Origin: Pseudomonadota bacterium
Lineage (GTDB): Bacteria > Myxococcota_A > UBA9042 > GCA-2863065
NCBI GenBank assembly: GCA_002863065.1
Contig: PKDL01000514.1
Location: forward strand, 65-64,064
DNA length: 64,000 bases
Direction of reading: 5' to 3'
Shown here: positions 2,093 to 62,476 of the stretch, piece after piece
Layout: the number at the start of each line of letters is the position of its first letter
Position numbering within the stretch: position 1 is the first letter of the stretch
Position numbers and translations under genes: made by a program
Notes under the pieces: generated by a model
The model's database searches: none
The model's input: the letters and a program-made list of their open reading frames with translations, nothing else
What the model was told of the DNA's origin: nothing

Positions 2093-2215
2093 CGACGCTA
2101 ACGCGATAGACCGCCAGGGGTAGCTTGGCTTGGCGCGATCCGGTACGTTGTGAATGCGTAAATGGCTTCGATACAGTGCAAGCTCAGCACACGACGATAA
2201 ATCCAAGGAGAATGT

Positions 2216-3400: not shown

Positions 3401-3404
3401 CCCA

Positions 3405-4916: not shown

Positions 4917-4927
4917 TTTTTCGCCTT

Positions 4928-5230: not shown

Positions 5231-5245
5231 CACCGGCCCATTTCA

Positions 5246-5998: not shown

Positions 5999-6041
5999 CC
6001 TGCCTCCCTTCTGCTATCAATATCGGTGCACGCGCTCATCG

Positions 6042-18300: not shown

Positions 18301-19489
18301 GCCAGGCGATCTACTGTCGAAAGGTGATGTGCTTGCGTGCCGAGCCACGGCATCAGACGGATTATTATCGTCGTTAGAAGCAATTATATTGGCCAAGGTC
18401 GTCAATGCCCCACCAGTTGTCGAATCGGTGTCCTTGACGGCAAATGATACGACGGTCACGTGCAATAGTGAGACCTATGATCCTGATACCGAAGACAGCC
18501 TAAATCTTAGTTATGCATGGTTTGCCGATGGGCTTTCTCTACCGCTGGATAGCCACACGGTCTCATCACATTCATTACCTGCCTGTAGCAATGTTACCTG
18601 CGAAGTTACCGTCGATGATGGACATGCGAGCAATGTGAAAACGGCATCACCTCTTGACGTCGATAACCCGAAAGCCTGTGGTCCAGAACCATGCTTAGTG
18701 TGGTCGTGCTCTGCCAACGGATGTACTTCCGTGCCTGGCGTCGGACCGTGCGATGACGGTAACCCATGCACTGGTTCGGGTATCTGCATCAATTCTGTCT
18801 GCGTTGCTGAGCCACTACCCGACGACGCGTGCAATGACAGCAATGTATGCACAACAGACAGTTGTAATGCAGACGTCGGCTGCGTTCATACCCCCGTATC
18901 GTTCGGAGTCGACTGCAATGCAGATGATTCCGTTTGTACAGAGGCGGACTTCTGCAATGCGATGGGCACATGCATTCCAGGCCCCCCGATCAGCTGTGAT
19001 GATGGCATCGCGTGCACATCCGACGCATGTGACCCCAACGATGGGTGCATCGCTACTTTGCCGGGGGAGTCTATCGGCTTCGCCATCGATTTTGGAATGA
19101 CCGAAGAATTTCTTCCATTCGCAGATGAGGCCACCACCGAGCTGGTTCAAGGTCCCCAGGGTGGAGAACACATCGAGTTTTCTTTGCAATACCTCTTGCC
19201 ATCGTCCTTCAATTGGCAGCCGCTGCGATCTAGAGTCATTGTCACCCTGGAGGGACCATGTTGCGGCGGTCTTCCTATCGGGGGGATGTACTTACCAAAC
19301 GTCCTGAGCGACTTAGAAGGCCCCAATGTATACGTGAGTGGCATGGTGATAGGTATCTTTGATCAGGAAATAACGACGGGCTCGACCGTATGCGCAACGG
19401 TCGAAGTGACAGTTTATGACGAACCAGGAACCACCGCAGTCAACACCAGCACTGCGAGGCATATGTTTACTATTATCGACACCGAGTAA
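15359..19489 (+). CDS. Giant secreted lipoprotein/adhesin-like protein: multiple Ig/cadherin-like beta domains plus two blocks of slime-mold-type (Dicty_CTDC-like) Cys repeats
   Basis: Lipobox WLAVSCIAC; repeated ~90-aa beta-rich units (ATxPxxxT..CxxxxDPD); CDDGNxCTxDxCxxxxGC repeated >12 times at nt ~17600-18120 and ~18670-19060. Confidence 0.7.
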   Translation: MGRKFNIYRQLGFIWLAVSCIACEPKSTAFVAPESVANDVVLSEDIKAPNVRILPERPTSRDALTAQLLSPEAGAQYHFRWIVNGELLDDQIDETLPGGTVSRGQSVVLEVSASRDGRTSPWGGASVVIGNAAPVCLRASILPNPPTIFDSIECRCDDLDDPDDDLVDTLCLWSDLEPTLNSCSRPAPHNWLTNTLLTCELTAIDSRQDAGTVIASSMVVNTPPTGGQVGLQPAQVFEDSQVRCLASGATDPDGVSWNYDILVDGLLAATGPEAEINGNSFDKGQSIQCIATATDGIAKGQPIASETVVVGDSPASVVAIQATPPVVTRLQTPSCDITMTDPDLSDIPESVTTWWRNGVVLDWEPASPLGNTVVPGDTIFCSATPLDYPGESTPKLSNNLLVKNLGPDLAGVDILPEAPTISDVLTCVPYAHDPEGDPMVFSYSWSVDGAQITDAGATLSGITAGSLVQCEVQVSDAYGDTASMASSTVAVVHSPPYIEGIAMLPTTPGPCDSVSCIVNDVSDPDGTSNLTIATTLLLNGVPTSETTFAVGAELQCIATITDETGLNVTASSTISQVTNTPPTLSAVTISPAQPTAGDTLTCAPVDAIDPDCNTPPAAIIEWVSEAGVTSGGALETTAEQAGQQVTCSLTVSDGYDSSTAVQSTVTLAPPPSLPTVTITTDINGSVICSPESPLNSPSWFWRVGNNDEFQGPWFLPPSTYQDCDRVTCRAESNGLATNIAEALIPLGPDCDDGSLCTLDTCSPAGGCSHTALSGACDDGDNCTENDACQDAICSGSPTDCDDDNPCTTELCVSGFGCNYGYANGPCDDGDACTLDDYCIEGSCGFASTAICDDGDVCTDDACDSELGCIGWPNVSVCDDGNSCTHMDVCADGDCQGKPLTESITCPDPASPLGYCSNGVCVSNIPPQIPILTISPSIAQAGSPLICSAVATDPDSWPAPMQYTFRWTREPAGIQIADGPELPGDLLSKGDVLACRATASDGLLSSLEAIILAKVVNAPPVVESVSLTANDTTVTCNSETYDPDTEDSLNLSYAWFADGLSLPLDSHTVSSHSLPACSNVTCEVTVDDGHASNVKTASPLDVDNPKACGPEPCLVWSCSANGCTSVPGVGPCDDGNPCTGSGICINSVCVAEPLPDDACNDSNVCTTDSCNADVGCVHTPVSFGVDCNADDSVCTEADFCNAMGTCIPGPPISCDDGIACTSDACDPNDGCIATLPGESIGFAIDFGMTEEFLPFADEATTELVQGPQGGEHIEFSLQYLLPSSFNWQPLRSRVIVTLEGPCCGGLPIGGMYLPNVLSDLEGPNVYVSGMVIGIFDQEITTGSTVCATVEVTVYDEPGTTAVNTSTARHMFTIIDTE

Positions 19490-30191: not shown

Positions 30192-31298
30192 ATGGAAGCC
30201 TCTGAGAAAAAAACAGCGGAACAAGGCGAGACACGCCGAGACTTCCTCGAGCATGCCGCTATCGGTACGACTGCCGCTGCGGCCGCGATTGCGCTGCCAA
30301 AGGTGGCCTCAGCAAAAAATCCGACATCATTTCCCATGTCCAAGAGAGGACACGTCGTACGCGCGTACCATTCTGGGGCTACCATTAAGGTAACAAAACA
30401 AGATAAAGAGATAGTGGAGAGCATGCTCGAGGCAGCCCTGCTCCGCCTCACAGGAGAGTCTTCGATTGGCGATGCCATGAAGCATTTTGTGAAGCCCGAC
30501 GATATTGTGGGTGTCAAATTGAACACCCTCGGCTCACCGTACTCAACCGTCACTGCTGAGACGGCATTTGCGGTGGCTGACGCGGTCCATGCTGCTGGTG
30601 TAGCCAAAGAAAATATTATCATCTATGACCAGTACGGCTCTCGGATGCGAAAGGCGAAAATACGTCCGATGCCAACGTATAAGAAGCCACAGCCGGGACA
30701 GTACCAGGTTCACTTCCACAAGAACCTGGGATACGAAGACAAACCCACCGACTTCGGTGCCAAACGAAAAAATGGAAAGGCGACCACCAGCAAACTTGCG
30801 GCGGTCGCACGAAAATGCACGGCAGTCATCAACGTCTGTGTACCCAAAGATCATGACCTTTCAGGTGTAACTGGGGCCATCAAAAATGTGGCCTACGGAA
30901 ACATTGATTCCGTTCCCAAATACCACTGCTCAAAGGAGTGTGTACCGACGTGTAAACACGGGGTGTGCAACATCGCAAAAGTGTATTCACATGCACAAAT
31001 GGGGGGCAAAGTACGGCTTATCGTATGCGATGCATTGCGTGTCCTCTATCACGGCGGTCCGCAAGACAAGAAATGGCGAGAGGTTCATAATGAAATCGCC
31101 GTCACGACCGATCCGGTCGCGATGGATCGAATCATTTACGACTGGGTAGACGGCTATCGAAAGAAACACAAGCTCAAGCCGCTGGCCATTGACCGAGATG
31201 GACGCCGGCTACCGAGATTCATACAAGGGGCAGCTGACCTTGGACTCGGTGAAGGCGACTTGGCCAAAATTACTCAAGACCGCATCGAACTAGGCTAG
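30192..31298 (+). CDS. Tat-secreted DUF362-like protein (putative Fe-S/Cys-cluster protein)
   Basis: Twin-arginine signal TRRDFLEHAAIGTTAAAAAIALPKVASA; Cys cluster KYHCSKECVPTCKHGVCN; overall similarity to DUF362 family recalled, not verified. Confidence 0.4.
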   Translation: MEASEKKTAEQGETRRDFLEHAAIGTTAAAAAIALPKVASAKNPTSFPMSKRGHVVRAYHSGATIKVTKQDKEIVESMLEAALLRLTGESSIGDAMKHFVKPDDIVGVKLNTLGSPYSTVTAETAFAVADAVHAAGVAKENIIIYDQYGSRMRKAKIRPMPTYKKPQPGQYQVHFHKNLGYEDKPTDFGAKRKNGKATTSKLAAVARKCTAVINVCVPKDHDLSGVTGAIKNVAYGNIDSVPKYHCSKECVPTCKHGVCNIAKVYSHAQMGGKVRLIVCDALRVLYHGGPQDKKWREVHNEIAVTTDPVAMDRIIYDWVDGYRKKHKLKPLAIDRDGRRLPRFIQGAADLGLGEGDLAKITQDRIELG

Positions 31299-31321
31299 TC
31301 GGGCTTCCATCTTGGCGCTAC

Positions 31322-31345
31322 GCACTTCCCCACTCGTGGAAGTGC
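31322..31345 (+). terminator. Stem-loop gcacttcc-N8-ggaagtgc 24 nt after DUF362-like gene stop
   Basis: Perfect 8-bp stem. Confidence 0.3.
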
Positions 31346-31493
31346 TCCAAGCCGAGATACGTCCAACAATGCGCACCGACAAAATTCGGTCGTTGACCGC
31401 ACGGTCGACACCTCCTACTATTCGGCGCCCTGCGAGGTCCAGGATTAGAAATGGGCCCGAATGACGCAGATATGACAGTCGACTAGAGGACCC

Positions 31494-33071
31494 ATGCTCG
31501 AGACCGTATCGAAGGGATTCAAATCCGCACGCAACCGGCTCAAAGGCTATCGAGAGCTAAGCGAAGAAAATATCGACGAAGCAGTGCGAGACATTCGCAT
31601 TTCGCTGCTCGAGGCAGATGTTGAGTTCAACGTCGTCAAAGCCTTCCTAGGAAAGGTCAAAGACAAGGCGGTGGGTGAGCTCGTACAGGTCACGACGGAG
31701 AGTAAGAGCAAAGGTAAAGTCAAAGTTTCGCCTGGAGACCACTTCGTAAAGATATGTCTCGATGAACTGACAGACCTAATGGGACCCGTCGACCCGTCTC
31801 TAAGCTACGCGCAGAGCGGTGTATCGAAAATCATGATGGTGGGTCTGCAGGGTTCGGGTAAGACCACAACGGTAGGCAAGCTTGCGAAGCGATTAGAAAA
31901 AGAAGGTAAACGCCCCCTTCTCGTTGCCGCCGATGTGTATCGTCCAGCAGCGGTCCAGCAACTGAAAGTCCTGGGCCAAAAGCTTCGTATACCAGTATAT
32001 GACGAAGGGACTGGCGACCCGGTTGAGATCTGCCAAAATGCGGTGGCCAAAGCCAAGGCGATCGGACGCAACGTCGTCATCTTCGATACCGCAGGGCGCT
32101 TAGCCATCGACGAGCCGCTGATGGCGGAACTCGATCGGATAGTCGACAACACAAAACCCGACAACATCCTATACGTCTGCGACGCAATGACAGGTCAAGA
32201 TGCGGTGAAGACTGCGAGGACCTTCAATCAGCGCTTGGACATTGATGGGGTCATCCTCACCAAAATGGATGGTGATGCCCGGGGCGGTGCCGCCCTGTCG
32301 GTCAAGGCCGTTACCGGTAAACCCATCAAATTTGTCGGCATGGGTGAGGGGATGGACCGCCTCGAGCCATTCCGTCCCGAGGGGATTGCCACTCGGATAC
32401 TTGGACTCGGCGACGTCGTCGGGCTCATGCAAGACTTCGAGCAAGTCGTTGACGAGGAAAAAGCCGATGAAGATGCGAAGCGTATCCTCAGCGGAAAATT
32501 CAACTTGGTGCATTTCCTCGACCAGATCAAAACCATCCAGAAGCTCGGTCCGATCAAAGAGGTGTTCGAGAAACTTCCGTTCGGTGACATGCCAGACGGT
32601 ATGCAAGTCGATGACAAACAGCTGAAGCGCGTAGAATCGATGATTAACTCGATGACCAAACAAGAACGAGAAGACCCCGAGGTTTTCTCAGTGTCTGGGA
32701 GCGGTGAGAGTCGTATCGGACGTGTTGCAAAAGGTAGCGGAATGCAACGGAGTGATGTCCGCAATCTGCTGCAGCGTTTCTTCGGTATGCGCCAAATAAT
32801 GGGTAACGTGGGTAAACAACCCGGACTCCTCAGTAAGTTACCCGGATTCAACCAACTCAATCAGCTCAAAAATATCCAAGGCCTGGATATGGAAGAGATG
32901 CTTGGACGAGAAATGGCGCAGGCAATGAACCCCTCAGCACCTGCGAGTCGGGGACGGCAGCGAGGCGCGCCTGGTACTCGGCGAGGCCCAACAGCATCAC
33001 AGAAGCAGAAGGCAAAATCGCGCGCCAAAATGGCCAAGAAAAGTCGAAAGAAAGGCCGGAAGAAAAAGTAA
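31494..33071 (+). CDS. ffh: Signal recognition particle protein Ffh (with extended Lys/Arg-rich C-terminal tail)
   Basis: N-domain LETVSKGF...LKGYRELSEENIDEAVRDIRISLLEADV; G-domain GLQGSGKTTT, DTAGR, TKMDGDARGG; M-domain Met-rich. Confidence 0.95.
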   Translation: MLETVSKGFKSARNRLKGYRELSEENIDEAVRDIRISLLEADVEFNVVKAFLGKVKDKAVGELVQVTTESKSKGKVKVSPGDHFVKICLDELTDLMGPVDPSLSYAQSGVSKIMMVGLQGSGKTTTVGKLAKRLEKEGKRPLLVAADVYRPAAVQQLKVLGQKLRIPVYDEGTGDPVEICQNAVAKAKAIGRNVVIFDTAGRLAIDEPLMAELDRIVDNTKPDNILYVCDAMTGQDAVKTARTFNQRLDIDGVILTKMDGDARGGAALSVKAVTGKPIKFVGMGEGMDRLEPFRPEGIATRILGLGDVVGLMQDFEQVVDEEKADEDAKRILSGKFNLVHFLDQIKTIQKLGPIKEVFEKLPFGDMPDGMQVDDKQLKRVESMINSMTKQEREDPEVFSVSGSGESRIGRVAKGSGMQRSDVRNLLQRFFGMRQIMGNVGKQPGLLSKLPGFNQLNQLKNIQGLDMEEMLGREMAQAMNPSAPASRGRQRGAPGTRRGPTASQKQKAKSRAKMAKKSRKKGRKKK

Positions 33072-33103
33072 GGCGCGGGAAGATACCCCCGCGATAGCGC
33101 TCA

Positions 33104-33601
33104 CTACAGCTGAAACCGCTGTGCCTTCGGTACATCAGAACACAATTGACCACGTTCAAATCGCCCCCGCCCGACCGGCACATGGTAGATCTCACCATTA
33201 CTGGCCGTTATCGTACCAATTACTATCGAATAATGCCGAGGTGACTCATCTGACGGCCAAGAGATTCGGTTTCCAGCAGCGAACATGCGTGTCCCCTCAT
33301 GGTTTAGCGTGATTGTTGAGCGGCTCGCGAGGTGTCCGAATCGCTGGATAAAACTGGCCGATAGACGTGTTGGCTGTGCGATATTCTTACTAGCCATCAT
33401 CCCAAATGCACCCGTAGGAATGCCGGGGATTGGCCGCATCTCCGACCGAGCTATCCACACCGCATCGGATTCGCACCGATGCCAAAACGTCCAACCAGCA
33501 AAGGCGTCTGAAGGAAAGCCGTATTCCTCCATCAACGTAATCACGAACACATGGCGGTCATCGAGGGCTTGGAATGCATCTAACTTTGTCGGCAAGCTCA
33601 T
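33104..33601 (-). CDS. Hypothetical protein, possibly separately encoded RsmF-type C-terminal (PUA-like) domain; ATGA overlap with upstream methyltransferase
   Basis: Position and size (165 aa) match the C-terminal extension of RsmF; no catalytic motifs; assignment by context only. Confidence 0.35.
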   Translation of the reverse strand: MSLPTKLDAFQALDDRHVFVITLMEEYGFPSDAFAGWTFWHRCESDAVWIARSEMRPIPGIPTGAFGMMASKNIAQPTRLSASFIQRFGHLASRSTITLNHEGTRMFAAGNRISWPSDESPRHYSIVIGTITASNGEIYHVPVGRGRFERGQLCSDVPKAQRFQL

Positions 33602-34614
33602 GATATGCCTCCGCCTGCTGCGACTGAGTGACCGTCTGTGGCCGGTTCCATGTGACTTGGCTCCGGTAGCTTCCGCAATAACGCGATAAAGAAGCCCCCA
33701 CTATTGTTGTGGTGAGGCCAGATCCGCCATGCATTACGCACATCATCGCGATATGTTTGACCCTCCCAAGCCGCAAGTCCTGGAGAAATCCGAAGTCCGG
33801 CAGGAGGAGCCATAGCGACGACTTCCGCTACATGCGGCCAGATGCTGTTCAGGACACCCTCATTTTCTTCGGGGGCAAAGGTACATGTAGCATACGCGAC
33901 AAGTCCGCCAGGCCGAGTCAGTGCCAACGCACGCCTTAACATCCCTTTCTGGGTCTGTACGACACTTTTCCGATAAGCATCAACGGAATGCCGACGATGC
34001 ATATTGCGCTTTCGAGTGGTCCCTTCACAGGTACATGGCACATCCACCAATACTTTATCGAAACCGTGCCCACCCAAAGCAAATGGAGTCTTGGGCACCG
34101 TCCCGTCCAACCACGTAAATCGGGCGGCATCATGTCTGGTAATGAGCGCTGATGTCACCCCAAGTCTCTCAAGGTTATGCCGTAGCGAGACGAGTCGATC
34201 CCAGCGCCGTTCATTCGCGATAATCAGTCCCTCATCTTGCATTGCCACCGCAAGCTGAGCTGTTTTATTTCCTGGAGCCGCGCATAGATCGAGTACACGC
34301 TCTCCTGGCTGTGCGTTCAGTAACGGAACGGCCCACAAGGCAACCTCTTCTTGACCGTGAATCCAACCCAACCGGTACTCCGGCCATAATCCCGGCTTCA
34401 CCCCAGGCGGTAAACGCCAGGCCAAGGTCTGCCAAGGTATGATCTGAGCTTCAGGCACCCGCGCTGCCACCAGTCTCCGAACGTCATCGGCCGACGCTTT
34501 CAGCGGATTGTGCCAAATCGCTCGCGGCAAAGGCATCTGACAAGCGTGCATAAATGCATCCCAATCATCGACGATCGGTTTGTAGCGTTGGAGACACTTT
34601 TCTAACCAGCTCAC
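33598..34614 (-). CDS. RsmB/RsmF (NOP2/Sun) family rRNA cytosine-C5 methyltransferase
   Basis: SAM motif VLDLCAAPGNKTAQLA; motif IV DVPCTCEGT (catalytic Cys); motif VI YATCTF; GGFFIALLRK end of MTase domain. Confidence 0.85.
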   Translation of the reverse strand: MSWLEKCLQRYKPIVDDWDAFMHACQMPLPRAIWHNPLKASADDVRRLVAARVPEAQIIPWQTLAWRLPPGVKPGLWPEYRLGWIHGQEEVALWAVPLLNAQPGERVLDLCAAPGNKTAQLAVAMQDEGLIIANERRWDRLVSLRHNLERLGVTSALITRHDAARFTWLDGTVPKTPFALGGHGFDKVLVDVPCTCEGTTRKRNMHRRHSVDAYRKSVVQTQKGMLRRALALTRPGGLVAYATCTFAPEENEGVLNSIWPHVAEVVAMAPPAGLRISPGLAAWEGQTYRDDVRNAWRIWPHHNNSGGFFIALLRKLPEPSHMEPATDGHSVAAGGGIS

Positions 34615-34794
34615 GCTGTTCTCCTCTCATGGACAGATTGCTTATTGCCATATCGTCGAGCGAAGCAAAACCGAAGGATAGGTACGACTGCTCGTACAAT
34701 ACTCACAAACGTTATCGTCCCCGGCACCGTACTTTCGCTGTATGGAGTTACACACTGTACATAACAAAACGCCCATCTCCTGCATCATACACGT

Positions 34795-35340
34795 GTGAAT
34801 CGGCGTCGAGTTATCCGAGGAATTGCGGTTTGTGCCACGACTCTCCTAGTCGTATACGCGGGCTATAGAGCCTGGTGGACGCCGGCCATTGGCGGAGAGC
34901 CAACGTCTGGTGAGACTGCTCCCGATTTCACACTGCTCGACCAAAGCGGCACTGCACATACACTCTCTCGGCTCCTGAACCAGGGCCCTGTTGTGGTGAG
35001 CTTTTATCGCGGATACTGGTGACCCAATTGCAGAACTCAGCTCGGAGAGCTGAAACAGCTACAAGAGGCAGTGCAAATTGTCGCCATCAGTGCCGACTCC
35101 GCGAAAGACTCAGCCACATATGCGAAAAATCACGGAATCCGTTTTCCCCTACTCAATGATGGAGCATCGACGGTCATGAGTGCCTATGGCGTCCGTATGG
35201 TCGATACCCCGATTGCAGTACCAGCCACATTTCTAGTCAATACGGAGAGAGTCGTCGTTTGGAGCCACATCGGAGCAACCCAAAGAGACTTTGCAGATAT
35301 TGATGCCTTGCAGGCTGCAATTGCAGGCCTACCGCCGTAG
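34795..35340 (+). CDS. Candidate selenoprotein: membrane-anchored peroxiredoxin-like/TlpA-like thioredoxin-fold protein (AhpC/TSA family) with in-frame TGA (35020-35022) at first redox Cys: FYRGYW-U-PNCR
   Basis: Two same-frame ORFs (34795-35022 and 35071-35340) joined only by one TGA; readthrough gives APDFTLLDQSG...VVSFYRGYW[TGA]PNCRTQLGEL...AISAD...HGIRFPLLND (redoxin fold with UxxC); hairpin tcagctc-gga-gagctga 15 nt downstream of TGA. Confidence 0.6.
35037..35053 (+). ncRNA. Candidate SECIS-like hairpin downstream of in-frame UGA
   Basis: 7-bp stem tcagctc/gagctga with GGA loop beginning 15 nt 3' of the TGA at 35020. Confidence 0.35.
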
Positions 35341-36732
35341 CTATCCTGGCGGTAGGCTCTCCTCATCACACCACCTCACCAAATCGGCGAGACAAAGTCG
35401 GCCATCATGCGCCCAAACCATAGACGGCGTACCCATCGCTCCTGGAGGGCAAATCCTAGTCACACCCAAGCGTGCTAATTGAAGTCGGTCCTCCTCAGAT
35501 ATTCCCGCAACAGCCGCACATTGGAGGTACTGGCGCACCGGATTGATCTGCGCAAATACATCCTCGGCTTTATCTACGGGTACCACTGTCACAAAGCGGT
35601 CTAACGGACCTGGCTTTAGGGTATCGAGCTGCCGAATAACGACAGACGACTGCAAGGTATCGCTCACGAGTCGAGCATCTCCCATGGCGGCCTCTACTCG
35701 GCTAAGTTCGAGCGCACTTCGGAGGGCTGGAGCCTCTTCAGGCAACAAGGCGCGAGCAGGTAGCCTTTTCCGCACCTTGGTCATGGCATTGGATAGCTGC
35801 TCCGCAAACGTTTCCGGCGAGACCTCACCACCGGATTCGACATACACAGCTTGCGGCGCAAGACATGCGTGCTGGTCGAACACGCTAAAATCATATGCCA
35901 ATTTTTCGGCCAGTCCGAGGCTGTCTGACGTGGTCATCACCGATGAGGTAAGCCATGCAAAGCCCATACGATGTCCATGCCAAGTAGCACGAGATCCGTG
36001 CGGAAGCCGTTTTTCGATCTCAGCGAGTGCTGCGTCTCCTCCATACGCAATGAGGTGATCGCTACACTCGAGAAATGCATCACTAAGCTCATGCTTATCC
36101 CGGTCGTAATACACTACTGCCAAGCACTCGCTCAGCTCTGGGTCGATGGCTGCGAGCGATTGTGCGTATAAAGGTAAATATAATGGTTCGCCACGACTCA
36201 CACGCCCCATACAGGCTGCTTTCACAAGAAAGGAGCGCATAACGGTCAGATGTGGCAAGGCGGGAATATTCGCGCTAAAAATGCCGCCGATCAGCTCTGG
36301 ACCGACCGCCGTTGAGCGGCCCTTTGGAGTCTTAATAAAACCATCAAGAGCGAGTCGATTACCCAGTTCCCGGTCAAGTGCTCTACGCATATCTGGACCG
36401 CGAGAACTAATCTGCTCGAGATGAATCGCATGCGACACCATCTCCTCAGAAAATCCCGATAAGACCGAAATCGCCGTCACTGCGTGACTGCGGAGTGGCG
36501 TATCTTCCAACCAGAACCGCGCTACTGAGTCGAGAGCCTCAATAATCTCGTCGATAGACCGACGCGCAAGCACTTCACGACGGCGTGCTTTCAATCGAGC
36601 AGCACATTGCCGTATTTGGGAGACTGTCAGGACGGGAAACCGTACCTCAATCGACCGTCCATCACGTACCGCGGTCATTGCCGTAGTCTCAACCTGAATA
36701 CCTGGTAGCCAAAACGCATCGTAACTAGCCAC
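35341..36732 (-). CDS. LuxC-family acyl-CoA (acyl-protein) reductase
   Basis: ~460 aa; catalytic-Cys block VFDQHACLAPQAVYV as in LuxC; follows LuxE-like gene with overlap. Confidence 0.7.
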   Translation of the reverse strand: MASYDAFWLPGIQVETTAMTAVRDGRSIEVRFPVLTVSQIRQCAARLKARRREVLARRSIDEIIEALDSVARFWLEDTPLRSHAVTAISVLSGFSEEMVSHAIHLEQISSRGPDMRRALDRELGNRLALDGFIKTPKGRSTAVGPELIGGIFSANIPALPHLTVMRSFLVKAACMGRVSRGEPLYLPLYAQSLAAIDPELSECLAVVYYDRDKHELSDAFLECSDHLIAYGGDAALAEIEKRLPHGSRATWHGHRMGFAWLTSSVMTTSDSLGLAEKLAYDFSVFDQHACLAPQAVYVESGGEVSPETFAEQLSNAMTKVRKRLPARALLPEEAPALRSALELSRVEAAMGDARLVSDTLQSSVVIRQLDTLKPGPLDRFVTVVPVDKAEDVFAQINPVRQYLQCAAVAGISEEDRLQLARLGVTRICPPGAMGTPSMVWAHDGRLCLADLVRWCDEESLPPG

Positions 36733-37819
36733 CGGTTTGTCCTCCCAGCATGGCGTCTATCGTGAGCGAACAACCCTTCGACTCAACTCCCTTCGCCCGC
36801 CCCAATACCGTCCAGCCTAGCGCATCTCGTACCCCCAAATCGTCGGTAAGTACCGCACATGGCCGTTCTAAGTTGGCCAGGTCCCAATGACAGAGCAGAC
36901 CCGGAGTACCATGGGCAGCAAACTGCATCGAACGTGGGTCCAGCACCACAGTTCGAGTCCAGGGCGCATTAGACTTGCGGCGCCGCTGAGGATCGCGGTG
37001 TATCAATACATCATCGTAGAATTGACTAGCGAGCTCCGTCATTCCAAGTAAATTGACGCTGAGATGGGCAGGAATTGCCAGTGTCTCGGTAATCGCCCGA
37101 TCCATGTCATTTCGCCGCACCACACGGGACCTTCCCTTGAATCCACCGGCATCCATTAGTCGGCTGCCCTCCGGCAGCTGCAACGTCAGGGATTTAGCGG
37201 CAAGACCATCCAGAAGGTGAACGAACCCGAAGCTAGCACCGATCAATGTGACCGGGATGTTGGCACGGATGCAGTCCGTGAAAGTCTGCATCAAACCATT
37301 TTGGTCCAAACCCTCTGGACCGACGAGAAATCGAGAACCTGGTAAACCGAAATGTTGGATGAGCTGCTCCATTCCCCACGCCATAATCATATGCGGAGCT
37401 AAAGAAGGCGAAGGGGCAAGTACCAGAATGACCGTATTGCGCCCTTCGGGTAAAAAATATTTGCGTGCATTCTGCAGAATACTTTCCGCCATCAGAGTGA
37501 GGCCGGCTTCAGAAAAGTGGGCTTTTGACTTCGGTGCGCCGCTCGTACCGCTCGAAAAAAACGTATGCGCAAGCGCACCGTCATCGAACATGGAATATGA
37601 CTTAAAAGCACGAGCGGGTATCGCGGGGATATCATTCCAGCGCTGAACCCTATCAGGCGTGTTTCCAGTGTAGTCCGCTACCCGACGGACAACCTCAATG
37701 TGCTTATACTGGTACTCGAATACCGCAAGGGCAAGCGCATTGAAGTCTCCAACTTCGGGTGTCCGGATAAATGACACCAGGCGATCGTGCAGGGCATCGT
37801 GTGCGAGTTCCCGAGTCAC
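36725..37819 (-). CDS. LuxE-family acyl-protein synthetase (adenylate-forming)
   Basis: N-terminal FEYQYKHIEVVRRVADYTG...WNDIPAIPARAFK...FSSGTSG typical of LuxE/acyl-protein synthetase. Confidence 0.7.
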   Translation of the reverse strand: MTRELAHDALHDRLVSFIRTPEVGDFNALALAVFEYQYKHIEVVRRVADYTGNTPDRVQRWNDIPAIPARAFKSYSMFDDGALAHTFFSSGTSGAPKSKAHFSEAGLTLMAESILQNARKYFLPEGRNTVILVLAPSPSLAPHMIMAWGMEQLIQHFGLPGSRFLVGPEGLDQNGLMQTFTDCIRANIPVTLIGASFGFVHLLDGLAAKSLTLQLPEGSRLMDAGGFKGRSRVVRRNDMDRAITETLAIPAHLSVNLLGMTELASQFYDDVLIHRDPQRRRKSNAPWTRTVVLDPRSMQFAAHGTPGLLCHWDLANLERPCAVLTDDLGVRDALGWTVLGRAKGVESKGCSLTIDAMLGGQTGG

Positions 37820-38973
37820 TCTAACGGTCTCCTGTGCACCGTGATGGCCTTTGATGTGATGAAGGGCATGAGTTCTCCACGAATATCATCCAGGCTCCGC
37901 CCCGTATCCAATGCATGCGCTTCAAGCGTTGTGCATCCGTCGACCCACGATGGACCTTTGGTGAGTATCAGGGGGACGCAATCCGATGGAAGCACAGGCA
38001 AGTCAATCGGCTTGACCGGTAACACCTCATCGTCTGCCGCGTAGGCAAATAATCTTGGAGCATGGTTGAATTTTCGTTCAAAAGCATAAGCGTAGGCAGA
38101 CAGCCCTGCTGCCACTCCATCACCGAGAGCTACCAATGTCGATGCATAACGCCCAGTCACATCTCCTGCGGCAAACACTCCTGGCTCGCTTGTTCGCATT
38201 AGTCCGTCTGTCGTAAGGAACCCTCTCAAATCGCGGGCCGGCTCCACACCGGTGACGTGCAAGGCTGGTGTTAGTTCGAAGGCATTGTAATCCATCAGAA
38301 TGGCACCACAGTCTATTATTCGCTCACCATGCGCATCACGTACCTTAGCCGCTACCACATGCGTTTCGCCCATAACTTCGAGTAGCTCACCTCCATCCAG
38401 CACCGTGACTGGACCTGCTCCACTGGTATGCGCACGGAGCATAGCCTTCAGATGCGACGTTTTTTCATTACCGACGACGAGAAGACCACGACCAGAAGCG
38501 TCTTTCGCACAGGCCCGGAGTAAGCGTGGAAAATGCTCATATCCTTTGTACGTAATGCGCACCCCTCGCAGATAGTACTCCGACTCATTTGCCAGAGGCC
38601 GGAACCCCGTTGCCAGAATTACAGCCAAGCTCCGCAATGCAGCGCCCGATGCCAGACCTACCTCCAAAAGCGCACCTTTTCGGTGTATCGAAACCACTTG
38701 GTCATGCTGAATTGGTATGCGTAATCTCTCAATATCGGCCATCAATCGATCGGTAAGCTCTTGTCCTTTGTAGGCCCAACCGGGCCCAGAAAGCACACAG
38801 CTCCCCCAACGCAATAAACCGCCGACTGTACCCGATTCGATGATCCGTACTGAGCAAGCCATGGCATGGTAACCCTTCACCCAGCGTACCCGCGTCGCCG
38901 CTGCCAAGCCTGCCGGTCCGGCTCCAACAACGATCACATCGGCATCATAACCGCCTGGCGAGACATCAGCCAT
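37816..38973 (-). CDS. FAD-dependent pyridine-nucleotide oxidoreductase (thioredoxin-reductase-like fold, no CxxC) with C-terminal extension; start likely Met at 38973
   Basis: DADVIVVGAGPAGLAAA FAD-binding GxGxxG; FAAGDVTGR C-terminal FAD motif; second NAD(P) Rossmann LLVVGNEKTS. Confidence 0.7.
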   Translation of the reverse strand: MADVSPGGYDADVIVVGAGPAGLAAATRVRWVKGYHAMACSVRIIESGTVGGLLRWGSCVLSGPGWAYKGQELTDRLMADIERLRIPIQHDQVVSIHRKGALLEVGLASGAALRSLAVILATGFRPLANESEYYLRGVRITYKGYEHFPRLLRACAKDASGRGLLVVGNEKTSHLKAMLRAHTSGAGPVTVLDGGELLEVMGETHVVAAKVRDAHGERIIDCGAILMDYNAFELTPALHVTGVEPARDLRGFLTTDGLMRTSEPGVFAAGDVTGRYASTLVALGDGVAAGLSAYAYAFERKFNHAPRLFAYAADDEVLPVKPIDLPVLPSDCVPLILTKGPSWVDGCTTLEAHALDTGRSLDDIRGELMPFITSKAITVHRRPLE

Positions 38974-39487
38974 CCTGTGAAGCCTTATGCGTCGAAGTCG
39001 AAAGTCCCAACCACTGGGCGAGTCCACCTGCATCACACACACGCTGCCAATGCGGATCCCATGGTTCGATAGGAAATTGCCGACCGCTTACTGTCAATAG
39101 GCGCGATATCAGGTCGAGTCGTACCGCAACATCATCGGAAGGCCGATAACCAGCAAGTGCCGGACAAACCACTGCAGGTAAGCCCAAGTTCATCACGTTC
39201 CGATAGAAAATACGGGCGAAAGATGCGGCTACAATCGCCTGGACCCCGGCCAGTACGAACACGCGCGCCCCCGTTTCACGCGATGAGCCAATCCCGAAGT
39301 TCTCTCCCGCCAATACAATGGCACCGGTAAGGTCGCGCTGCCCATCTGACTCCCTGCCATCAACGGCGCCTAGAAACCCCGACCGAACCTTTTTATCGTC
39401 CAGGCTATAAAAGCGGCTGGGATGTAAAATGTCGGTATTGACGTTATCACCCAGCACGAGTGCTCGCCCCTCGACCAGCGGCTTCAT
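38966..39487 (-). CDS. leuD: 3-isopropylmalate/(homo)aconitate dehydratase small subunit, archaeal type
   Basis: LGDNVNTDILHPSRF swivel-domain motif; 173 aa; ATGA overlap with large subunit. Confidence 0.8.
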   Translation of the reverse strand: MKPLVEGRALVLGDNVNTDILHPSRFYSLDDKKVRSGFLGAVDGRESDGQRDLTGAIVLAGENFGIGSSRETGARVFVLAGVQAIVAASFARIFYRNVMNLGLPAVVCPALAGYRPSDDVAVRLDLISRLLTVSGRQFPIEPWDPHWQRVCDAGGLAQWLGLSTSTHKASQDG

Positions 39488-40829: not shown

Positions 40830-42932
40830 ATGGGGACACCATCTCGCATTACAATTGTCGCTGGCACCATCGCTATTTTTGCATTAGCGGGCATCGTGTT
40901 GATGCTCCTCGCACTTGTCGGCCGTCCACTCGCTACCGCCGACCTGTGGTTCCACCTCAAAATGGGCGAATGGTACCTGCAGGAAGGACTGTGGCCCCTC
41001 GCTGATCCCATGTTGCATACCAACGGACCGATTACCCCTGTGCAACATGAATGGCTGTTCGGAGTCGCCGTACATACCGTGGAACGCTTTTTCGGATTCC
41101 AGGGATTGAGAATCACCAATATCCTCTCTGTCATACTCATTATCGGGCTCGTGTTCGATGTGTGCCGTCGCCAGGCTGGCAGCATTGCAGAAGCATGCCT
41201 TGGAACTGGAGCATTTGTCATACTTAGTTGGCTACGGCTGATGCAGGACAGACCAGACCGATGGTCTATCGCAAGTCTGCTCATCCTCTATAAGCTGACC
41301 CTGGAACCAGGTAGACGACTGACTGCCCGCTCCACGGCGGCAGTACTGGTTCTTATGCTGTTGTGGGTAAACGCGCATTCACTGTTCGCCATCGGACTGG
41401 CGTTGATCGGAGTGACGATGGTAGCGCGTTTCTTTGAGTCTCAGCTCACAGCCCAACTTTCGAATGTATCGCAAGCAGATAACTCGCTGGTGAAACACAT
41501 GCTATGGCTTCTGATTTTATCCTTCGCCATCACCCTACTCAATCCGCGTGGAATATGGCAGCACCTCACATTTTTCACATCCAGTACCACCACGGCAGTG
41601 TGGGCAGTAACGGACGAATGGCTAGCCTTTTATCCCTGGTCTCCTGGAGCACCCAACAGTCCCGTTCTTCCATGGCTGACATGGCTAGTAGCCGATATTA
41701 CTCTGATAGGTTTCGTCGTTGCTCTAATCGCCGGATATCGACACCTTGTGACCTACCGAAAAACGCATGCGCTGGGGGCACTCAATCCCACACTCATGCT
41801 ACTTGGCATCGTTAGCATCGGAGCCATGTTGGTCAGTTTCCGCTTCTTATGGCTTGGGCTCTTCCCCATCCTCTTTATTTTGCGAGTACGGCGAGAGGTA
41901 TCGGGCGCATCCGCCGTACGCGGGGACCAATGGGTCGGTGTAAGTGCACTCACTGCTGCCGCCGCAATCACCAGTATTTTACTATTCTGGCCAACCGCTT
42001 CTGGTGCATGGTCATTACATATGTCCGATGTTCCTGAGGACACTAGCGAGTACATCAATACTGCGGTCAATCATGCAAGATATGCTGGAGAGGGGGCACA
42101 ATTTCTGAACGATGCCGGAATCGAAGGCAATCTCTTCAATAACTATACCCTTGGCGCATATTTGGGATTCCAATTAGCACCCCAGATACGCACCTTTATC
42201 GATGGTCGCGCCGAGCATTATCCGCCGGAAGTAATGATTGACTACGATGTCATCACTGCGGGCGGAGTACGAAATGATGGGCGACATTACCTGGACATTC
42301 TCGACGACCGAAAAGTCGACCTATTTTATGGCGTTGGCGGGGTCGGATACGGCTACCATGCTGATGACACATTGCACCATGTAGAAGCGGTACCGTGGTG
42401 GGTGCTGATATTTCGCTCCGCTGGGCACGGAATTTGGCTGCGAAAAGACGCAGCTTCAATCGCGACCCTACAACGCATAAAGGCATACTATGACGCCCGG
42501 GGCATTCCATTCTCGGTCGAAGCAGGGCTCGATGTCGGGCAACTCATCCGAGAACACCAGGCATACGCAATCGATATCCGCCTCATACCGCCCATCTATC
42601 CTGCCAGGCTAGCAGTATCACGCGAAGGCGACCCAGATACTCGCCTCAATGCATTGGCTTGGCTCGGGGACCGACACAAAATTGCTGGAGACTACGTAGG
42701 GGCATTAGGGGCATATGGCGAAGTGCTGAAAGTCAATCCAAACGTCGGGTATATCCTTGAGCAGTCTATAACCTGTCTAACAGCACTGGGTCACTTCGAC
42801 GCAGCCATGGATACATTTGCACGGGCGCAACGCGCCGGCGTACCGGATGAGACGTTGAAGCGGCTGGAGCATCACATCGCGAACCAATCCGAGTGGCGAA
42901 CCACCTTGTCGAAGTGGAAGGTCACTCCATGA
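40830..42932 (+). CDS. Large polytopic membrane protein with C-terminal TPR-like domain (GT-C/oligosaccharyl- or mannosyltransferase-like architecture)
   Basis: ~11 predicted TM helices in first 420 aa then soluble helical repeats; no definitive motif. Confidence 0.45.
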   Translation: MGTPSRITIVAGTIAIFALAGIVLMLLALVGRPLATADLWFHLKMGEWYLQEGLWPLADPMLHTNGPITPVQHEWLFGVAVHTVERFFGFQGLRITNILSVILIIGLVFDVCRRQAGSIAEACLGTGAFVILSWLRLMQDRPDRWSIASLLILYKLTLEPGRRLTARSTAAVLVLMLLWVNAHSLFAIGLALIGVTMVARFFESQLTAQLSNVSQADNSLVKHMLWLLILSFAITLLNPRGIWQHLTFFTSSTTTAVWAVTDEWLAFYPWSPGAPNSPVLPWLTWLVADITLIGFVVALIAGYRHLVTYRKTHALGALNPTLMLLGIVSIGAMLVSFRFLWLGLFPILFILRVRREVSGASAVRGDQWVGVSALTAAAAITSILLFWPTASGAWSLHMSDVPEDTSEYINTAVNHARYAGEGAQFLNDAGIEGNLFNNYTLGAYLGFQLAPQIRTFIDGRAEHYPPEVMIDYDVITAGGVRNDGRHYLDILDDRKVDLFYGVGGVGYGYHADDTLHHVEAVPWWVLIFRSAGHGIWLRKDAASIATLQRIKAYYDARGIPFSVEAGLDVGQLIREHQAYAIDIRLIPPIYPARLAVSREGDPDTRLNALAWLGDRHKIAGDYVGALGAYGEVLKVNPNVGYILEQSITCLTALGHFDAAMDTFARAQRAGVPDETLKRLEHHIANQSEWRTTLSKWKVTP

Positions 42933-44467
42933 CATCTTTGGCCGAGAGTCTCAGGCCCACCACCGTACGGCGCAGCCTGTTCTGCACTGTATTTTTACTA
43001 CTGAGCTATTGGGTGCATTTCTGGCCAACATTCCATGCCGCCAATGAGTCTATACGTCTGTACTTCGTTCAGGCTGTGGTTGACTACGGCTCCGCATCTG
43101 TAGATGAACCGCGTCAGCGGTACGGCATGACCAATGTAGACAAAGCTCACTACCAGGGTCATGACTACATGGACAAGGCACCTGGGCTATCACTGCTCGT
43201 AATCCCGGTCTACTGGATCGCAACGCGCATCTTTGGGATGTCGACGGAGTTTCCGGACCTTCCTAACCTGAGTTACCTTCTCTTGCTTTTTGGTGTCGTT
43301 ATTCCAGGTACTTTAGGAGCCTACGCCGTATATCGCGTAATCCAATCTCGAGCAGGGCCCAGCAAAGCGGTAGAAGAGGCAGCCCTATTTGGCGCCATCA
43401 TCGTTGGGCTCGCCTCGCCGTATGCCCTGTACTGCACCCTATTCTTCGGACACGGACCTGCCGCCGCATTAGGCGCAATGAGCATCGCCATGCTCAGCCG
43501 CCAACGATATGTTGCAGGAATGCTCGCGGGTGCCATGGTACTGGTCGATACCCCGGCGGCTGTACTTGCCTTTGGGCTCGGTATCTGGGTTCTCATCCGC
43601 ACGCGTAGCCTAAGAGCAATGATCGAGTTTGGTATTGGTGGAATCCCGCCGATTGCGATTCAACTCGCTTACAACACGTGGCTTTTCGATTCACCGTTCA
43701 CCTTCGCATATGCTCACAAAGCCAGTGGCGATCTCGCGACGATACATGCCCAAGGACTTTTTGGGTTTTCAATACCCACCATTGAAAGACTGTATGGCTT
43801 GTCTTTTGGCTCGGAACGTGGACTCTTTTTTCATGCACCGGTTCTACTCTTGGCCTTTTTTGGGGGGCCTCGGGCTAAACCGTTTCTCGTACTCAGTCTT
43901 CTGTATTTTCTGTGGATCGCAGCATTCGTCGACTGGCAAGCCGGGGCATCCTATGCGCCTCGGCATCTCACTCCGGTCGTACCACTGCTCGCAATAGCTG
44001 CAGCACTTAGCTTGCTCCAGCAGCCAAAGCTACGCGTAATCGCACCCGCATTGCTTGTGTACTCCGCCCTGGTGACATTTTCGATGATCAGTACCTTTCC
44101 GTACGCGATGATCCCTTTTGATGCACCCATCCTAGAACAGGCACTGCCCATGCTAGGGTCCGGTGCGATATCACCCAATATACTTGGCCTAACCAGCTAT
44201 ATGGCCTTATTACCGCCCATAGGACTAGCTGTGCTTTTATGCGGACTTCTCAGCGTACGTCGATCCTTGCTTGCGGGCTTTGTGGGTCTTGCATGCTTTC
44301 TCATGCTAGCCGCCGCTCCCGTTCCTCTCACCACGGCAGCCAAAATAGATAGCCTGACACGCGCCACTGCTTTCAACGGGTATGCGCCCGTCGCAAAGAA
44401 TATCTGTCACTCGCATAACGGCTATCGTTGGATTGAACGCGCATGGGCGTGTGTGCCCAAACGCTAA
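42929..44467 (+). CDS. GT-C fold membrane glycosyltransferase (PMT/ArnT family 39-like)
   Basis: Loop-1 motif YQGHDYMDKAPGLSLLVIPVYWIA; polytopic; ATGA overlap with upstream membrane protein. Confidence 0.5.
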   Translation: MTSLAESLRPTTVRRSLFCTVFLLLSYWVHFWPTFHAANESIRLYFVQAVVDYGSASVDEPRQRYGMTNVDKAHYQGHDYMDKAPGLSLLVIPVYWIATRIFGMSTEFPDLPNLSYLLLLFGVVIPGTLGAYAVYRVIQSRAGPSKAVEEAALFGAIIVGLASPYALYCTLFFGHGPAAALGAMSIAMLSRQRYVAGMLAGAMVLVDTPAAVLAFGLGIWVLIRTRSLRAMIEFGIGGIPPIAIQLAYNTWLFDSPFTFAYAHKASGDLATIHAQGLFGFSIPTIERLYGLSFGSERGLFFHAPVLLLAFFGGPRAKPFLVLSLLYFLWIAAFVDWQAGASYAPRHLTPVVPLLAIAAALSLLQQPKLRVIAPALLVYSALVTFSMISTFPYAMIPFDAPILEQALPMLGSGAISPNILGLTSYMALLPPIGLAVLLCGLLSVRRSLLAGFVGLACFLMLAAAPVPLTTAAKIDSLTRATAFNGYAPVAKNICHSHNGYRWIERAWACVPKR

Positions 44468-44498
44468 ATAAGGTTCTAGTGGACGACCTCGTACCCTC

Positions 44499-44518
44499 GA
44501 GATGAGACAACTCATCTC
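44499..44518 (+). terminator. Stem-loop gagatgag-acaa-ctcatctc 30 nt after stop of GT-C gene (possible intrinsic terminator, no U-tract)
   Basis: Perfect 8-bp stem, 4-nt loop. Confidence 0.3.
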
Positions 44519-44876
44519 CAGTCGTGCTCTCAACACCAACGAAAGCCGTGCCCATGGTCCATTCTCCTGCGAAAAAACAAGTGCCAAGTCATATCGGACT
44601 GAGAACCAAGCGGGAAGCCAGATTAACGGGGGCACTTTCCCGAATGCCACCTTCCGCGACTGCATAATTGGACAAGGGTTGAACTACCGTCAGCGTCGGG
44701 AAAAACTGGGGTCTTCCTAAACCACCTCCGTAAGAAACCCAGGCACGAATGCTCGATAAAAACAGGTGTGTGTACGATAACTGCATCGGCGCTTCACGTT
44801 GGTGAATACAAGATGCATCGTCTGCGATACGCAGTGCTGCTCGCATGACTTGGAGATAAAAAAGAGGAGTTCTCTA

Positions 44877-46163
44877 ATGTTTCTTGCAGACTTGACCGAA
44901 GACCTCTTTGGTATGGAACAGTCTCATATAACAAACATTGTCGTCGCCCTCTTCCTTGCGTCCTGTACGACGCCGCCTCCGGTCGATGTACAAGATGAGT
45001 CGCTCAATGATTCGTACACTGCGTATGCTACGCCTCCGAGCCCGCTGGTCCCGAGTACTCCGCTGCAGATTGGGAGTGTGCCGCATGATGCGACGAAGGT
45101 GCAGCGGACGGCACTGCATTGGTTAAATACGTTCCGTATCCGAGCCGGCGTTGCTCCAATCCACCAACTAAACACCTTAAACACTGCTGCCTCATCGCAT
45201 GCGGCCTACGTACTCGCCAATGCAGACCTCTATGCAACTGGCTTGTCTGTACACGAGCAAGACCCAGAGCAGCCGGGCTTCCTTGGAGAACGTTTCTGGG
45301 AGCGGCTCGCAGCCGTAGGTTATAATGGGACCGCATTCCGTGAGGTGGTCGCCTACCATGCTCAACCTGCGACCGCCATCGCACATTGGATGGAAACCAT
45401 CTACCACCGACTGCCTCTGATACATCCCAATGCCCAGCATGTCGGCTATGGTGAAGCACATCTGGTGAATGACCGGGTCAATGTAATGGACGTAGGCGCC
45501 GGCGATGGTTGGTCGCCCCGGATTCCCGGAGGTGTCGCCTGGCCACCGGATGGTGCGACCCAGGTGGCCTTGGCATGGGATGGATTAGAAAGTCCGCAGC
45601 CCTTGTCTCCGCCAAATGGGTTTCCATCTGGACCAGTCATCACGCTTACGTTTCCAAACGGTACGGACTTTGCGATTGCTGAACATCGACTCACAAATAT
45701 GAGTACGGGCGAGATCATCGCGCACGTCTTTGCGGATCAAAACAATGATCCAAACCTCGCAAAAGAAAGCTCAGTTGCCATGTATGCAAATGAACCACTG
45801 CAACCAGCCGCGACGTACTCAGTACAGATGAAGGGCGTAGTCGATGGCGCCGTTTTCGAACGTCAGTGGTCATTTAGTACACGAGCAGTCGCACAGTGCA
45901 GCGTCCAATGGCAGGATTGCGGGGTCGGAAAGGGCTGTTATGCCACTACCGACAATGGAGCCACATGCGCTTGGGCCGGTGCGAGGCGTATGGGGGAGCC
46001 CTGCGAATTCCAGAATGATTGTGCCGGGGGACTGACGTGTGTGTCGTCGGTCTGTCGTGTGTACTGCTTGGTCGATGGCGGAGATGGGGGCTGCGATACC
46101 AAATGTGATGCCGGGTGGTCAGCTCTGAATGTTCCGGGAGGCCATGGCGTCTGTAAGCTTTGA
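44877..46163 (+). CDS. Secreted lipoprotein with CAP/SCP (PR-1-like) domain and C-terminal Cys-rich module
   Basis: RBS AAGAGGAG 7 nt upstream; lipobox LFLASC; CAP motifs HTQVVW-like (HAAYVL...GENL..., HYTQ-like HWMETIYHRLPLIHPNAQHVGYG); C-terminal CxxC-rich. Confidence 0.6.
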   Translation: MFLADLTEDLFGMEQSHITNIVVALFLASCTTPPPVDVQDESLNDSYTAYATPPSPLVPSTPLQIGSVPHDATKVQRTALHWLNTFRIRAGVAPIHQLNTLNTAASSHAAYVLANADLYATGLSVHEQDPEQPGFLGERFWERLAAVGYNGTAFREVVAYHAQPATAIAHWMETIYHRLPLIHPNAQHVGYGEAHLVNDRVNVMDVGAGDGWSPRIPGGVAWPPDGATQVALAWDGLESPQPLSPPNGFPSGPVITLTFPNGTDFAIAEHRLTNMSTGEIIAHVFADQNNDPNLAKESSVAMYANEPLQPAATYSVQMKGVVDGAVFERQWSFSTRAVAQCSVQWQDCGVGKGCYATTDNGATCAWAGARRMGEPCEFQNDCAGGLTCVSSVCRVYCLVDGGDGGCDTKCDAGWSALNVPGGHGVCKL

Positions 46164-57991: not shown

Positions 57992-58117
57992 CCAGGCGTT
58001 TTGTACCCCGCAAAGAGCGATTAGTGCCCGTTTAACTGTCGCATTACGCTTCGCACAATTGAGTCCGCCCTAGACAATGATTTTGATCCCTATCAGCCCT
58101 ACCACTACCATCACGGG

Positions 58118-58372
58118 GTGAGCGCCGCGTCTAACCAGATCTCTCAGGACCACGAGGGAATGACTATTTGGGTCGTAGAGGTACTTAGTAACGGTGCGTG
58201 GGAGCTCCGAAATGGCCCCCTACCCAGCTACGATATGGCCCGTGCTTGCATTAACGAAAACATGGTCGAAAACAACCGCTGGCGTATACGTGGCGGGGTT
58301 GATGTCATGGACACAGTGGTCGAACCGACCTTGCCAAAAGCGAAGAAGAAAGCGTCGTCTAAAACCCCCTAA
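58118..58372 (+). CDS. Small hypothetical protein with basic C-terminal tail
   Basis: ORF only. Confidence 0.2.
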   Translation: MSAASNQISQDHEGMTIWVVEVLSNGAWELRNGPLPSYDMARACINENMVENNRWRIRGGVDVMDTVVEPTLPKAKKKASSKTP

Positions 58373-58393
58373 GTATCTCCGTAGAATTATGCG

Positions 58394-61548: not shown

Positions 61549-61555
61549 TGGCCGG

Positions 61556-62458: not shown

Positions 62459-62476
62459 ACGATTAGGTAGTTCCCT

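Follow-up and report, generated by a model that had tools for sequence, protein, structure and literature searches.

Prx-like thiol:disulfide oxidoreductases (PF00578) with a UxxC or UxxU motif and one to two Sec residues have been a high-confidence predicted selenoprotein family since 2004 (2026 review, PMC13188914 Table 1). The GOS marine samples contain 225 selenoproteins assigned to "Prx-like 1, pfam00578, UxxC" (PMC2398784 Table 2), and Prx-like selenoprotein genes occur in Geobacter, Syntrophus, and Desulfotalea (PMC1794560 Table 3). These three sources bear out the premise of the original prediction for the locus described here, namely that Sec-containing Prx-like oxidoreductases are established, including in Deltaproteobacteria.

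We analyzed a 64-kb stretch of DNA (termed the window) from a marine Myxococcota MAG; the NCBI records of the neighboring proteins name the source as Myxococcota bacterium. The redoxin gene of this window appears to be a further, mis-annotated member of the long-known Prx-like UxxC selenoprotein family, a placement supported by its sequence features. With this family (Kryukov and Gladyshev 2004; "Prx-like 1" of the GOS samples) it has in common PF00578, a UxxC motif with Sec in first position, many Cys homologues, the occurrence in deltaproteobacterial lineages and marine metagenomes, and a UxxU variant in a relative (L002, see below). The assignment is one by definition (PF00578 plus UxxC) and not by comparison with the Geobacter sulfurreducens reference WP_010940744.1. 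Within the Prx-like selenoproteins, the clade of the window gene possesses an N-terminal anchor or lipoprotein signal, whereas a 51-member clade with the motif FYRGYW-UPKC (termed the main clade) lacks such an extension.

A second related group comprises PRX_like2, or "peroxiredoxin-like family protein", and the SelL-related redox proteins (NCBIfam NF040769), which have in common with the window protein the FYRGxW-CxxC arrangement on a Prx-like fold. The second Cys of this motif corresponds to the peroxidatic Cys of Prx, as it does in the window protein, and one relative carries the NCBI name "peroxiredoxin-like family protein". However, the similarity of the window protein to NF040769 is weak: at 49 bits it stays below the cutoff of 120 and is thus outside this curated subfamily, and main-clade members score 28–38 bits. 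None of the curated NCBIfam models reaches its cutoff for the window protein, and the main clade also fits none.

Reading frame of the redoxin gene

Positions 34795–35340 of the (+) strand comprise a single frame of 181 codons that ends with TAG (35338–35340) and has a TGA at 35020–35022 as its sole internal stop. The ORF listing splits the locus into 34795–35022 (75 amino acids) and 35071–35340 (89 amino acids), and the NCBI record of the gene holds only the 89-amino acid C-terminal fragment. The original prediction had stated that the two listed ORFs lie in the same frame and are joined by one TGA, which we re-derived from the sequence, and that the ORF caller yields no full-length protein here, which is evident from the two listed pieces. 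Translation of the 181-residue read-through product recovered all of the motifs named in it (APDFTLLDQSG, VVSFYRGYW-TGA-PNCRTQL, AISAD, and HGIRFPLLND). Based on the single frame with one TGA, the Pfam matches, and orthologues of the same architecture, we annotate 34795–35340 as a complete coding sequence (181 residues and a TAG stop) for a predicted Prx-like UxxC selenoprotein. Two separate genes at this locus were considered and rejected.

The putative start site is GTG at 34795–34797 on the (+) strand; in the ORF listing it is the start codon nearest to the upstream stop, and the independently assembled L053 shares it. A promoter scan upstream of this GTG gave neither a Shine-Dalgarno nor a sigma-70 match, and the promoter and terminator scan around the redoxin gene returned nothing above background.

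Of the 42 long ORFs of the window, 14 are terminated by TGA, and hence the genetic code is standard. A reassignment of TGA was rejected, as the codon serves as an ordinary stop elsewhere in the window. When all TGA codons that bridge two long stop-free segments were inspected in six frames over the whole window, only 35020–35022 joined two plausible coding halves; no other credible TGA-split gene that could signal Sec use was found in the window.

Conservation of the in-frame TGA

The TGA at 35020–35022 (+) is the predicted selenocysteine codon for residue 76. It is kept in L053, a Tara metagenome scaffold (ENA ERZ28654550) that was assembled independently and is 99.45% identical to window positions 30719–36213 (5,495 bp), with five substitutions inside the redoxin gene. 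L001, from another metagenome, is a 55%-identical orthologue, the called protein of which ends exactly at FYRGYW. In its DNA, this motif is followed by TGA, after which the frame goes on with PNCRKQLGEL...IVAISAD...IAVPATFLI.

Comparison of the window gene with L001 gave a pN of 0.27 on both sides of the TGA, a pS of 0.77 upstream and 0.58 downstream, and a dN/dS of ∼0.30 downstream of the TGA. Synonymous sites are thus near saturation, and the TGA is still retained. Because pN is equal on both sides and pS is near saturation, the segment 3′ of the TGA must be translated and under selection; by this measure, coding conservation continues downstream of the UGA. The TGA is also found at the same codon in the DNA of the clade members L054, L055, L056/57, and L058. 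Altogether, besides L053, it occupies the redox codon in 56 further relatives across phyla (L001 and 55 others, including the main-clade loci L002–L052).

Sec and Cys forms of the family

A pattern scan covering one genome per species returned the 51 main-clade loci (L002–L052), which are 28–38% identical. They stem from Methylomirabilota/Rokubacteria, Binatia, Tectomicrobia, Deltaproteobacteria, Nitrospinota, Planctomycetota, Actinomycetota, and Gemmatimonadales MAGs. All 51 FYRGYW loci (eight phyla) carry the TGA in the context FYRGYW-TGA-[P/G]K-C, one of them with glycine replacing the second Cys, and the frame stays open for 96–152 codons 3′ of the TGA in 50 of these 51 distant relatives.

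The exception is L002, from a Tectomicrobia MAG (JACPUC010000010.1). At positions 10112–10123, this locus reads TGA-CCG-AAG-TGA (W-U-P-K-U), followed by 124 open codons up to a TAG. Going by these codons, L002 is a UxxU variant of the redoxin family that could form a diselenide, similar to the UxxU forms described for SelL and Prx-like 2.

When the 105 residues C-terminal to the TGA were used as query in an exhaustive HMMER search, 238 matches at E ≤ 1e-3 were obtained. Among the best 150 of the 238 cluster representatives, 102 are orphan C-terminal ORFs that begin directly 3′ of the redox motif, and 32 are full-length with a CxxC motif, 30 of the latter with FYRGxW-C-xxC. Four short C-terminal ORFs were examined at the DNA level, and all four are TGA-split genes (FYRG[YRN][WF]-TGA-xx-C-[KR]RQLGEL). 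A search of metagenome contigs with the clade alignment gave no matches.

The original prediction placed the TGA at the first Cys of the redox motif. Homologues of the Cys form agree with this placement: P0002, P0003, and P0005 (FYRGxW-C-PxC) as well as the 30 full-length relatives align a Cys with the TGA. A conserved UGA together with a Cys/Sec pair is an accepted in silico criterion for selenoprotein genes (PMC13188914).

Every Sec form of the main clade (51 of 51) has Tyr in front of the Trp (FYRGYW-U). At this position, Tyr is never found among the 32 full-length Cys forms (P0029–P0170), which carry H, D, A, G, S, F, L, N, or Q instead. Judging from this pattern, the choice of the residue beside Sec may be coupled to the use of Sec.

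A candidate SECIS hairpin downstream of the TGA

A hairpin with a 7-bp stem (tcagctc-gga-gagctga) lies at 35037–35053 (+), on the codons for (T)QLGEL(K). It starts 14 nt after the TGA, and its GGA loop (35044–35046) begins 21 nt after the UGA. The calculated MFE is −8.6 kcal/mol (z = −2.9 versus shuffles). The published bSECIS model calls for an apical loop of 3–9 nt, a stem of 4–16 bp, a G in the first two loop positions, a UGA-to-loop distance of 16–37 nt, and an MFE of ≤ −7.5 kcal/mol (PMC13188914 Fig. 2). The original prediction had described a 7-bp hairpin placed like a bacterial SECIS element, and indeed this hairpin satisfies four of the four published bSECIS constraints.

A loose filter for SECIS geometry is of little discriminating value, as it fires after 54% of the control codons. 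Given this background, a strict test was used instead that requires seven perfect Watson-Crick pairs in a SECIS-like geometry; such hairpins follow 0.64% (106 of 16,594) of the in-frame codons of the window's long ORFs. In seven sequences of the window clade, the helix is 91.1% paired, a value reached by none of 500 shuffles and compared with 21–54% for slid controls. These sequences show compensatory changes at pair 18–34 (UA, CG, GC, and GU) and at pair 21–31, where GC is changed to AU via the synonymous replacements CAG to CAA and CUG to UUG.

The distant main clade has a hairpin of 5–8 bp, the loop of which (AGUUGC, AGGUCAG, or AGUU) begins, with few exceptions among the members, at a distance of exactly 16 nt from the UGA. 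This hairpin is upheld in three different pairing registers. RNAalifold found no single consensus structure for all 49 sequences across the clades, because the sub-clades pair in different registers. Relative to the remainder of each gene, the 42 nt following the UGA have an ordinary stability (z = −1.1 for the window gene; mean z = −0.45 for the family). A search of the 64-kb window against Rfam gave no matches, which is expected, since to our knowledge bacterial SECIS elements have no general Rfam model.

Two Cys forms served as controls. The one with QLREL does not have this hairpin, and the one with QLGEL (L059, positions 63–668 of Logan SRR33696284; FYRGFW-C-TRCARQLGEL) has nearly the same hairpin as the Sec forms (GCAGCUC-GGG-GAGCUGG), as the peptide QLGEL tends to encode one. 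By its sequence, the hairpin of L059 may be a fossil SECIS element left after a change from Sec to Cys, or a pre-adapted one. QLGEL is modestly enriched in Sec forms (7/12 versus 5/30 in Cys forms; p = 0.02), and so is a glycine loop codon (9/12 versus 9/30; p = 0.014). Because a Cys-form control also possesses the hairpin, we count it as supportive only: it is good supporting evidence for a SECIS element at 35037–35053, and no proof of one.

Active site and relation to peroxiredoxins and TlpA/ResA proteins

With Sec written as Cys, the window protein matches the Pfam families AhpC-TSA (PF00578; 5e-27, 94.7 bits versus a cutoff of 26) and Redoxin (2e-22, 79.9 bits). The original classification as a peroxiredoxin/TlpA-like redoxin is thus correct at the level of the superfamily and does not extend to a true peroxiredoxin, since the catalytic Pro, Thr, and Arg of Prx are absent. 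The redox motif is U76-P77-N78-C79 (UxxC), encoded by 35020–35031 (+); throughout the clade alignment (A5), the position of Sec-76 holds C or U and that of Cys-79 holds C.

BCP/PrxQ peroxiredoxins (PDB codes 2cx3, 2ywn, and 5epf) are the best structural-sequence relatives (profile E = 4e-29) and have the overall fold and the position of the second Cys in common with the window protein. They feature the Pro and Thr of the PxxxT/SxxC motif and a catalytic Arg, whereas the window protein possesses none of these. In the alignments with 5epf, 2cx3, and 2ywn, Arg-72 is opposite the Pro, Sec-76 is opposite the Thr/Ser, and Cys-79 is opposite the peroxidatic Cys. The position of the catalytic Arg in 2cx3, 2ywn, and 5epf is taken by Pro-143 of the AVPATF motif (codon 35221–35223, + strand), which is invariant in the clade alignment and corresponds to the cis-Pro of the thioredoxin fold. 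With all three catalytic residues of Prx replaced, assignment to the true peroxiredoxins (BCP/PrxQ/AhpC) was rejected. The protein instead combines a Prx-like fold with the CxxC and cis-Pro arrangement of thioredoxin-type oxidoreductases.

TlpA, ResA, and CcmG share with the window protein an N-terminal anchor, the thioredoxin fold, an xCxxC active site, and the cis-Pro. ResA (NF002854) is the top NCBIfam match (residues 3–163), although its 53.8 bits are below the cutoff of 170, and ResA structures match the window protein at about 1e-20. In contrast to ResA, the motif of the window protein is FYRGYW-UPNC and not WCxxC, with Sec replacing Cys. Also different from the TlpA/ResA/CcmG group, no cytochrome c maturation genes are located near the window redoxin.

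N-terminal targeting segment

The N terminus (34798–34866, + strand) consists of NRRR followed by the hydrophobic stretch VIRGIAVCATTLLVVYAGY, with a Kyte-Doolittle maximum of 2.2 over residues 6–20. A membrane anchor had been proposed in the original prediction, and RRR followed by the hydrophobic VIRGIAVCATTLLVV is in line with it; the same profile also fits a signal peptide. Lipobox signal peptides are found at the same place in most relatives of the clade, in Sec and Cys forms alike. On these grounds, the redoxin would be anchored in the membrane with an extracytoplasmic redox domain. Its function is most likely that of a membrane-anchored extracytoplasmic thiol-disulfide oxidoreductase, in which Sec-76 would serve as the nucleophile and Cys-79 as the resolving residue.

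Genomic context

The redoxin gene stands alone between a divergent gene for an RsmB/F-like methyltransferase and a convergent LuxC-like gene, and the context therefore gives no functional clue. The redoxin (+) and LuxC-like (−) genes converge on adjacent stop codons, which are spanned by a strong 12-bp hairpin at 35326–35358 (−22.3 kcal/mol, z = −4.07; none of 200 shuffles folded as stably). This hairpin is probably a structure common to both transcript ends, and was missed by the terminator scan because it has no T-run behind it.

The (−) strand at 35341–39042 carries three overlapping, operon-like genes for a LuxC-like acyl-CoA reductase, a LuxE-like acyl-protein synthetase, and a thioredoxin-reductase-like flavoprotein. 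The NCBIfam matches are weak for all three; going by these matches, the trio may be a fatty-aldehyde-forming module. Long ORFs at 15359–19489 (+), 40830–46163 (+), and 55503–63958 (both strands), among them ones of 1376, 700, 524, 454, 791, and 493 amino acids, have no NCBIfam match at E ≤ 1e-10, and by this measure a sizeable part of the Myxococcota contig is uncharacterized. In the relative L055 (positions 2173–6303; NCBI GCA_046766315.1, JBJNWD010003491.1), the TGA-split redoxin gene adjoins a gene for a Ni-superoxide dismutase (PF09055), and two DSBA-family genes are located nearby, which suggests an oxidative-stress or envelope-redox neighborhood.

Discussion

At this locus there is very probably an actual gene, the product of which is a small, exported redox protein with an active-site selenocysteine at the TGA. 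The TGA is conserved and corresponds to Cys in homologues, purifying selection acts on both sides of it, the genetic code is standard, a covarying hairpin of the right geometry follows, and the catalytic residues of Prx are absent. The selenoprotein reading is strongly supported by this comparative evidence. Sec insertion itself, topology, substrate, and reductant are inferred, topology and substrate from inspection of the sequence. We assign a probability of roughly 0.88 to the reading that one gene encodes a 181-residue thioredoxin-fold protein, in which the UGA at codon 76 is recoded to Sec with the help of the hairpin and which acts as a membrane-targeted TlpA/ResA-like oxidoreductase.

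According to this reading, the stem-loop at 35037–35053, with its G-rich triloop 21 nt after the UGA, would recruit SelB-GTP-Sec-tRNA(Sec). Recoding of UGA codon 76 to selenocysteine would give the active site U76-P-N-C79, and the Arg-rich and hydrophobic N-terminal segment would direct the protein to the membrane and place its redox domain on the extracytoplasmic side, for which relatives have lipoprotein signal peptides. The selenolate would then attack substrate disulfides, or possibly oxidized thiols or peroxides, and form a selenenylsulfide with Cys-79 that would be resolved by a partner reductant. The redoxin would thereby resemble TlpA and ResA in function, as a thiol-disulfide oxidoreductase whose nucleophile is Sec.

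A nonsense mutation or base-call error in a former Cys redoxin, of which only the 75-amino acid stub is made, would also account for the fact that gene callers split the locus and that the NCBI record is confined to a C-terminal fragment, and it would be in keeping with the lack of visible Sec machinery within the window. However, the TGA is present in the independent strain-variant assembly L053 and at the same codon in the 56 further relatives across phyla. The downstream frame is open in all but a few of these, is under purifying selection equal to that of the upstream part, and follows a TGA that was retained although synonymous sites are near saturation. The comparative data effectively refute a pseudogene or sequencing error, to which we attach almost no credence: L053 keeps the TGA, L001 keeps it with purifying selection downstream, and 55 more relatives do likewise, so that the codon is genuine. 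Of the outcomes that the original prediction had named as refuting it, neither a non-Cys residue at the TGA position of homologues nor a sequencing error or pseudogene was thus borne out. Reading of the UGA without Sec, either by near-cognate insertion of Trp or Cys or in a reassigned code, would produce a W/C-xx-C protein. UGA-C is a weak termination context in bacteria, and the UGA is followed by C in five of the seven window-clade sequences; in addition, no Sec machinery was found in the 64-kb window. On the other hand, reassignment is excluded by the 14 of 42 long ORFs that end in TGA, and leaky read-through would not explain why TGA, and not TGC or TGG, is kept over a divergence that has reached saturation, nor why a positioned hairpin with compensatory changes is maintained. 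Moreover, residue 76 is at the position of the catalytic nucleophile, for which the homologues use Cys. We consider such a non-Sec product very improbable.

The protein might also be a genuine selenoprotein that functions as a thiol/selenol peroxidase, like peroxiredoxins, rather than as a disulfide oxidoreductase. The best Pfam and PDB matches are indeed AhpC/TSA and BCP/PrxQ peroxiredoxins, Cys-79 aligns with the peroxidatic Cys, the relative in L055 adjoins the Ni-superoxide dismutase gene, and relatives are named "peroxiredoxin" in the sources. Yet the replacement of all Prx catalytic residues (by Arg-72, Sec-76, and Pro-143), the CxxC and cis-Pro arrangement, the N-terminal anchor, and ResA as top NCBIfam match are features of a TlpA/ResA-type reductase. 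A peroxidase role is the weaker alternative and appears unlikely to us.

As for the host, neither selA, selB, and selD nor tRNA-Sec were found in the 64-kb window, where ARAGORN detects no tRNA at all, and Sec decoding by this organism is thus a putative trait. Within the Myxococcota the trait does occur, as Anaeromyxobacter dehalogenans possesses 11 selenoproteins (PMC1794560).

More tentatively, the window gene might represent a distinct sub-clade of exported (lipoprotein or membrane-anchored) Prx-like UxxC proteins in which Sec forms outnumber Cys forms and the SECIS element is hard-wired as a palindrome encoding Q-L-G-E-L. Since some Cys forms retain this palindrome, it could be read there as a pre-adapted or fossil SECIS element, which would make the switch from Cys to Sec a step of one nucleotide. 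We regard this sub-clade scenario as possible, if somewhat doubtful.

With Prx-like UxxC selenoproteins on record since 2004 and ranking with the most abundant selenoprotein families of the sea, one more member brings little conceptual gain. The connection of the QLGEL peptide with the SECIS hairpin, and the presence of the same hairpin in some Cys forms, is mildly interesting. In the public annotation of the Myxococcota MAG, a meaningless 89-amino acid fragment stands in place of the redoxin gene, and the best 150 of the 238 cluster representatives from the exhaustive search suggest that roughly a hundred representatives of the same clade are mis-called likewise. Correction of such mis-called genes would add extracytoplasmic selenoproteins to the marine and soil selenoproteomes, and the corrected gene of the window would imply the use of selenocysteine in a marine Myxococcota lineage.
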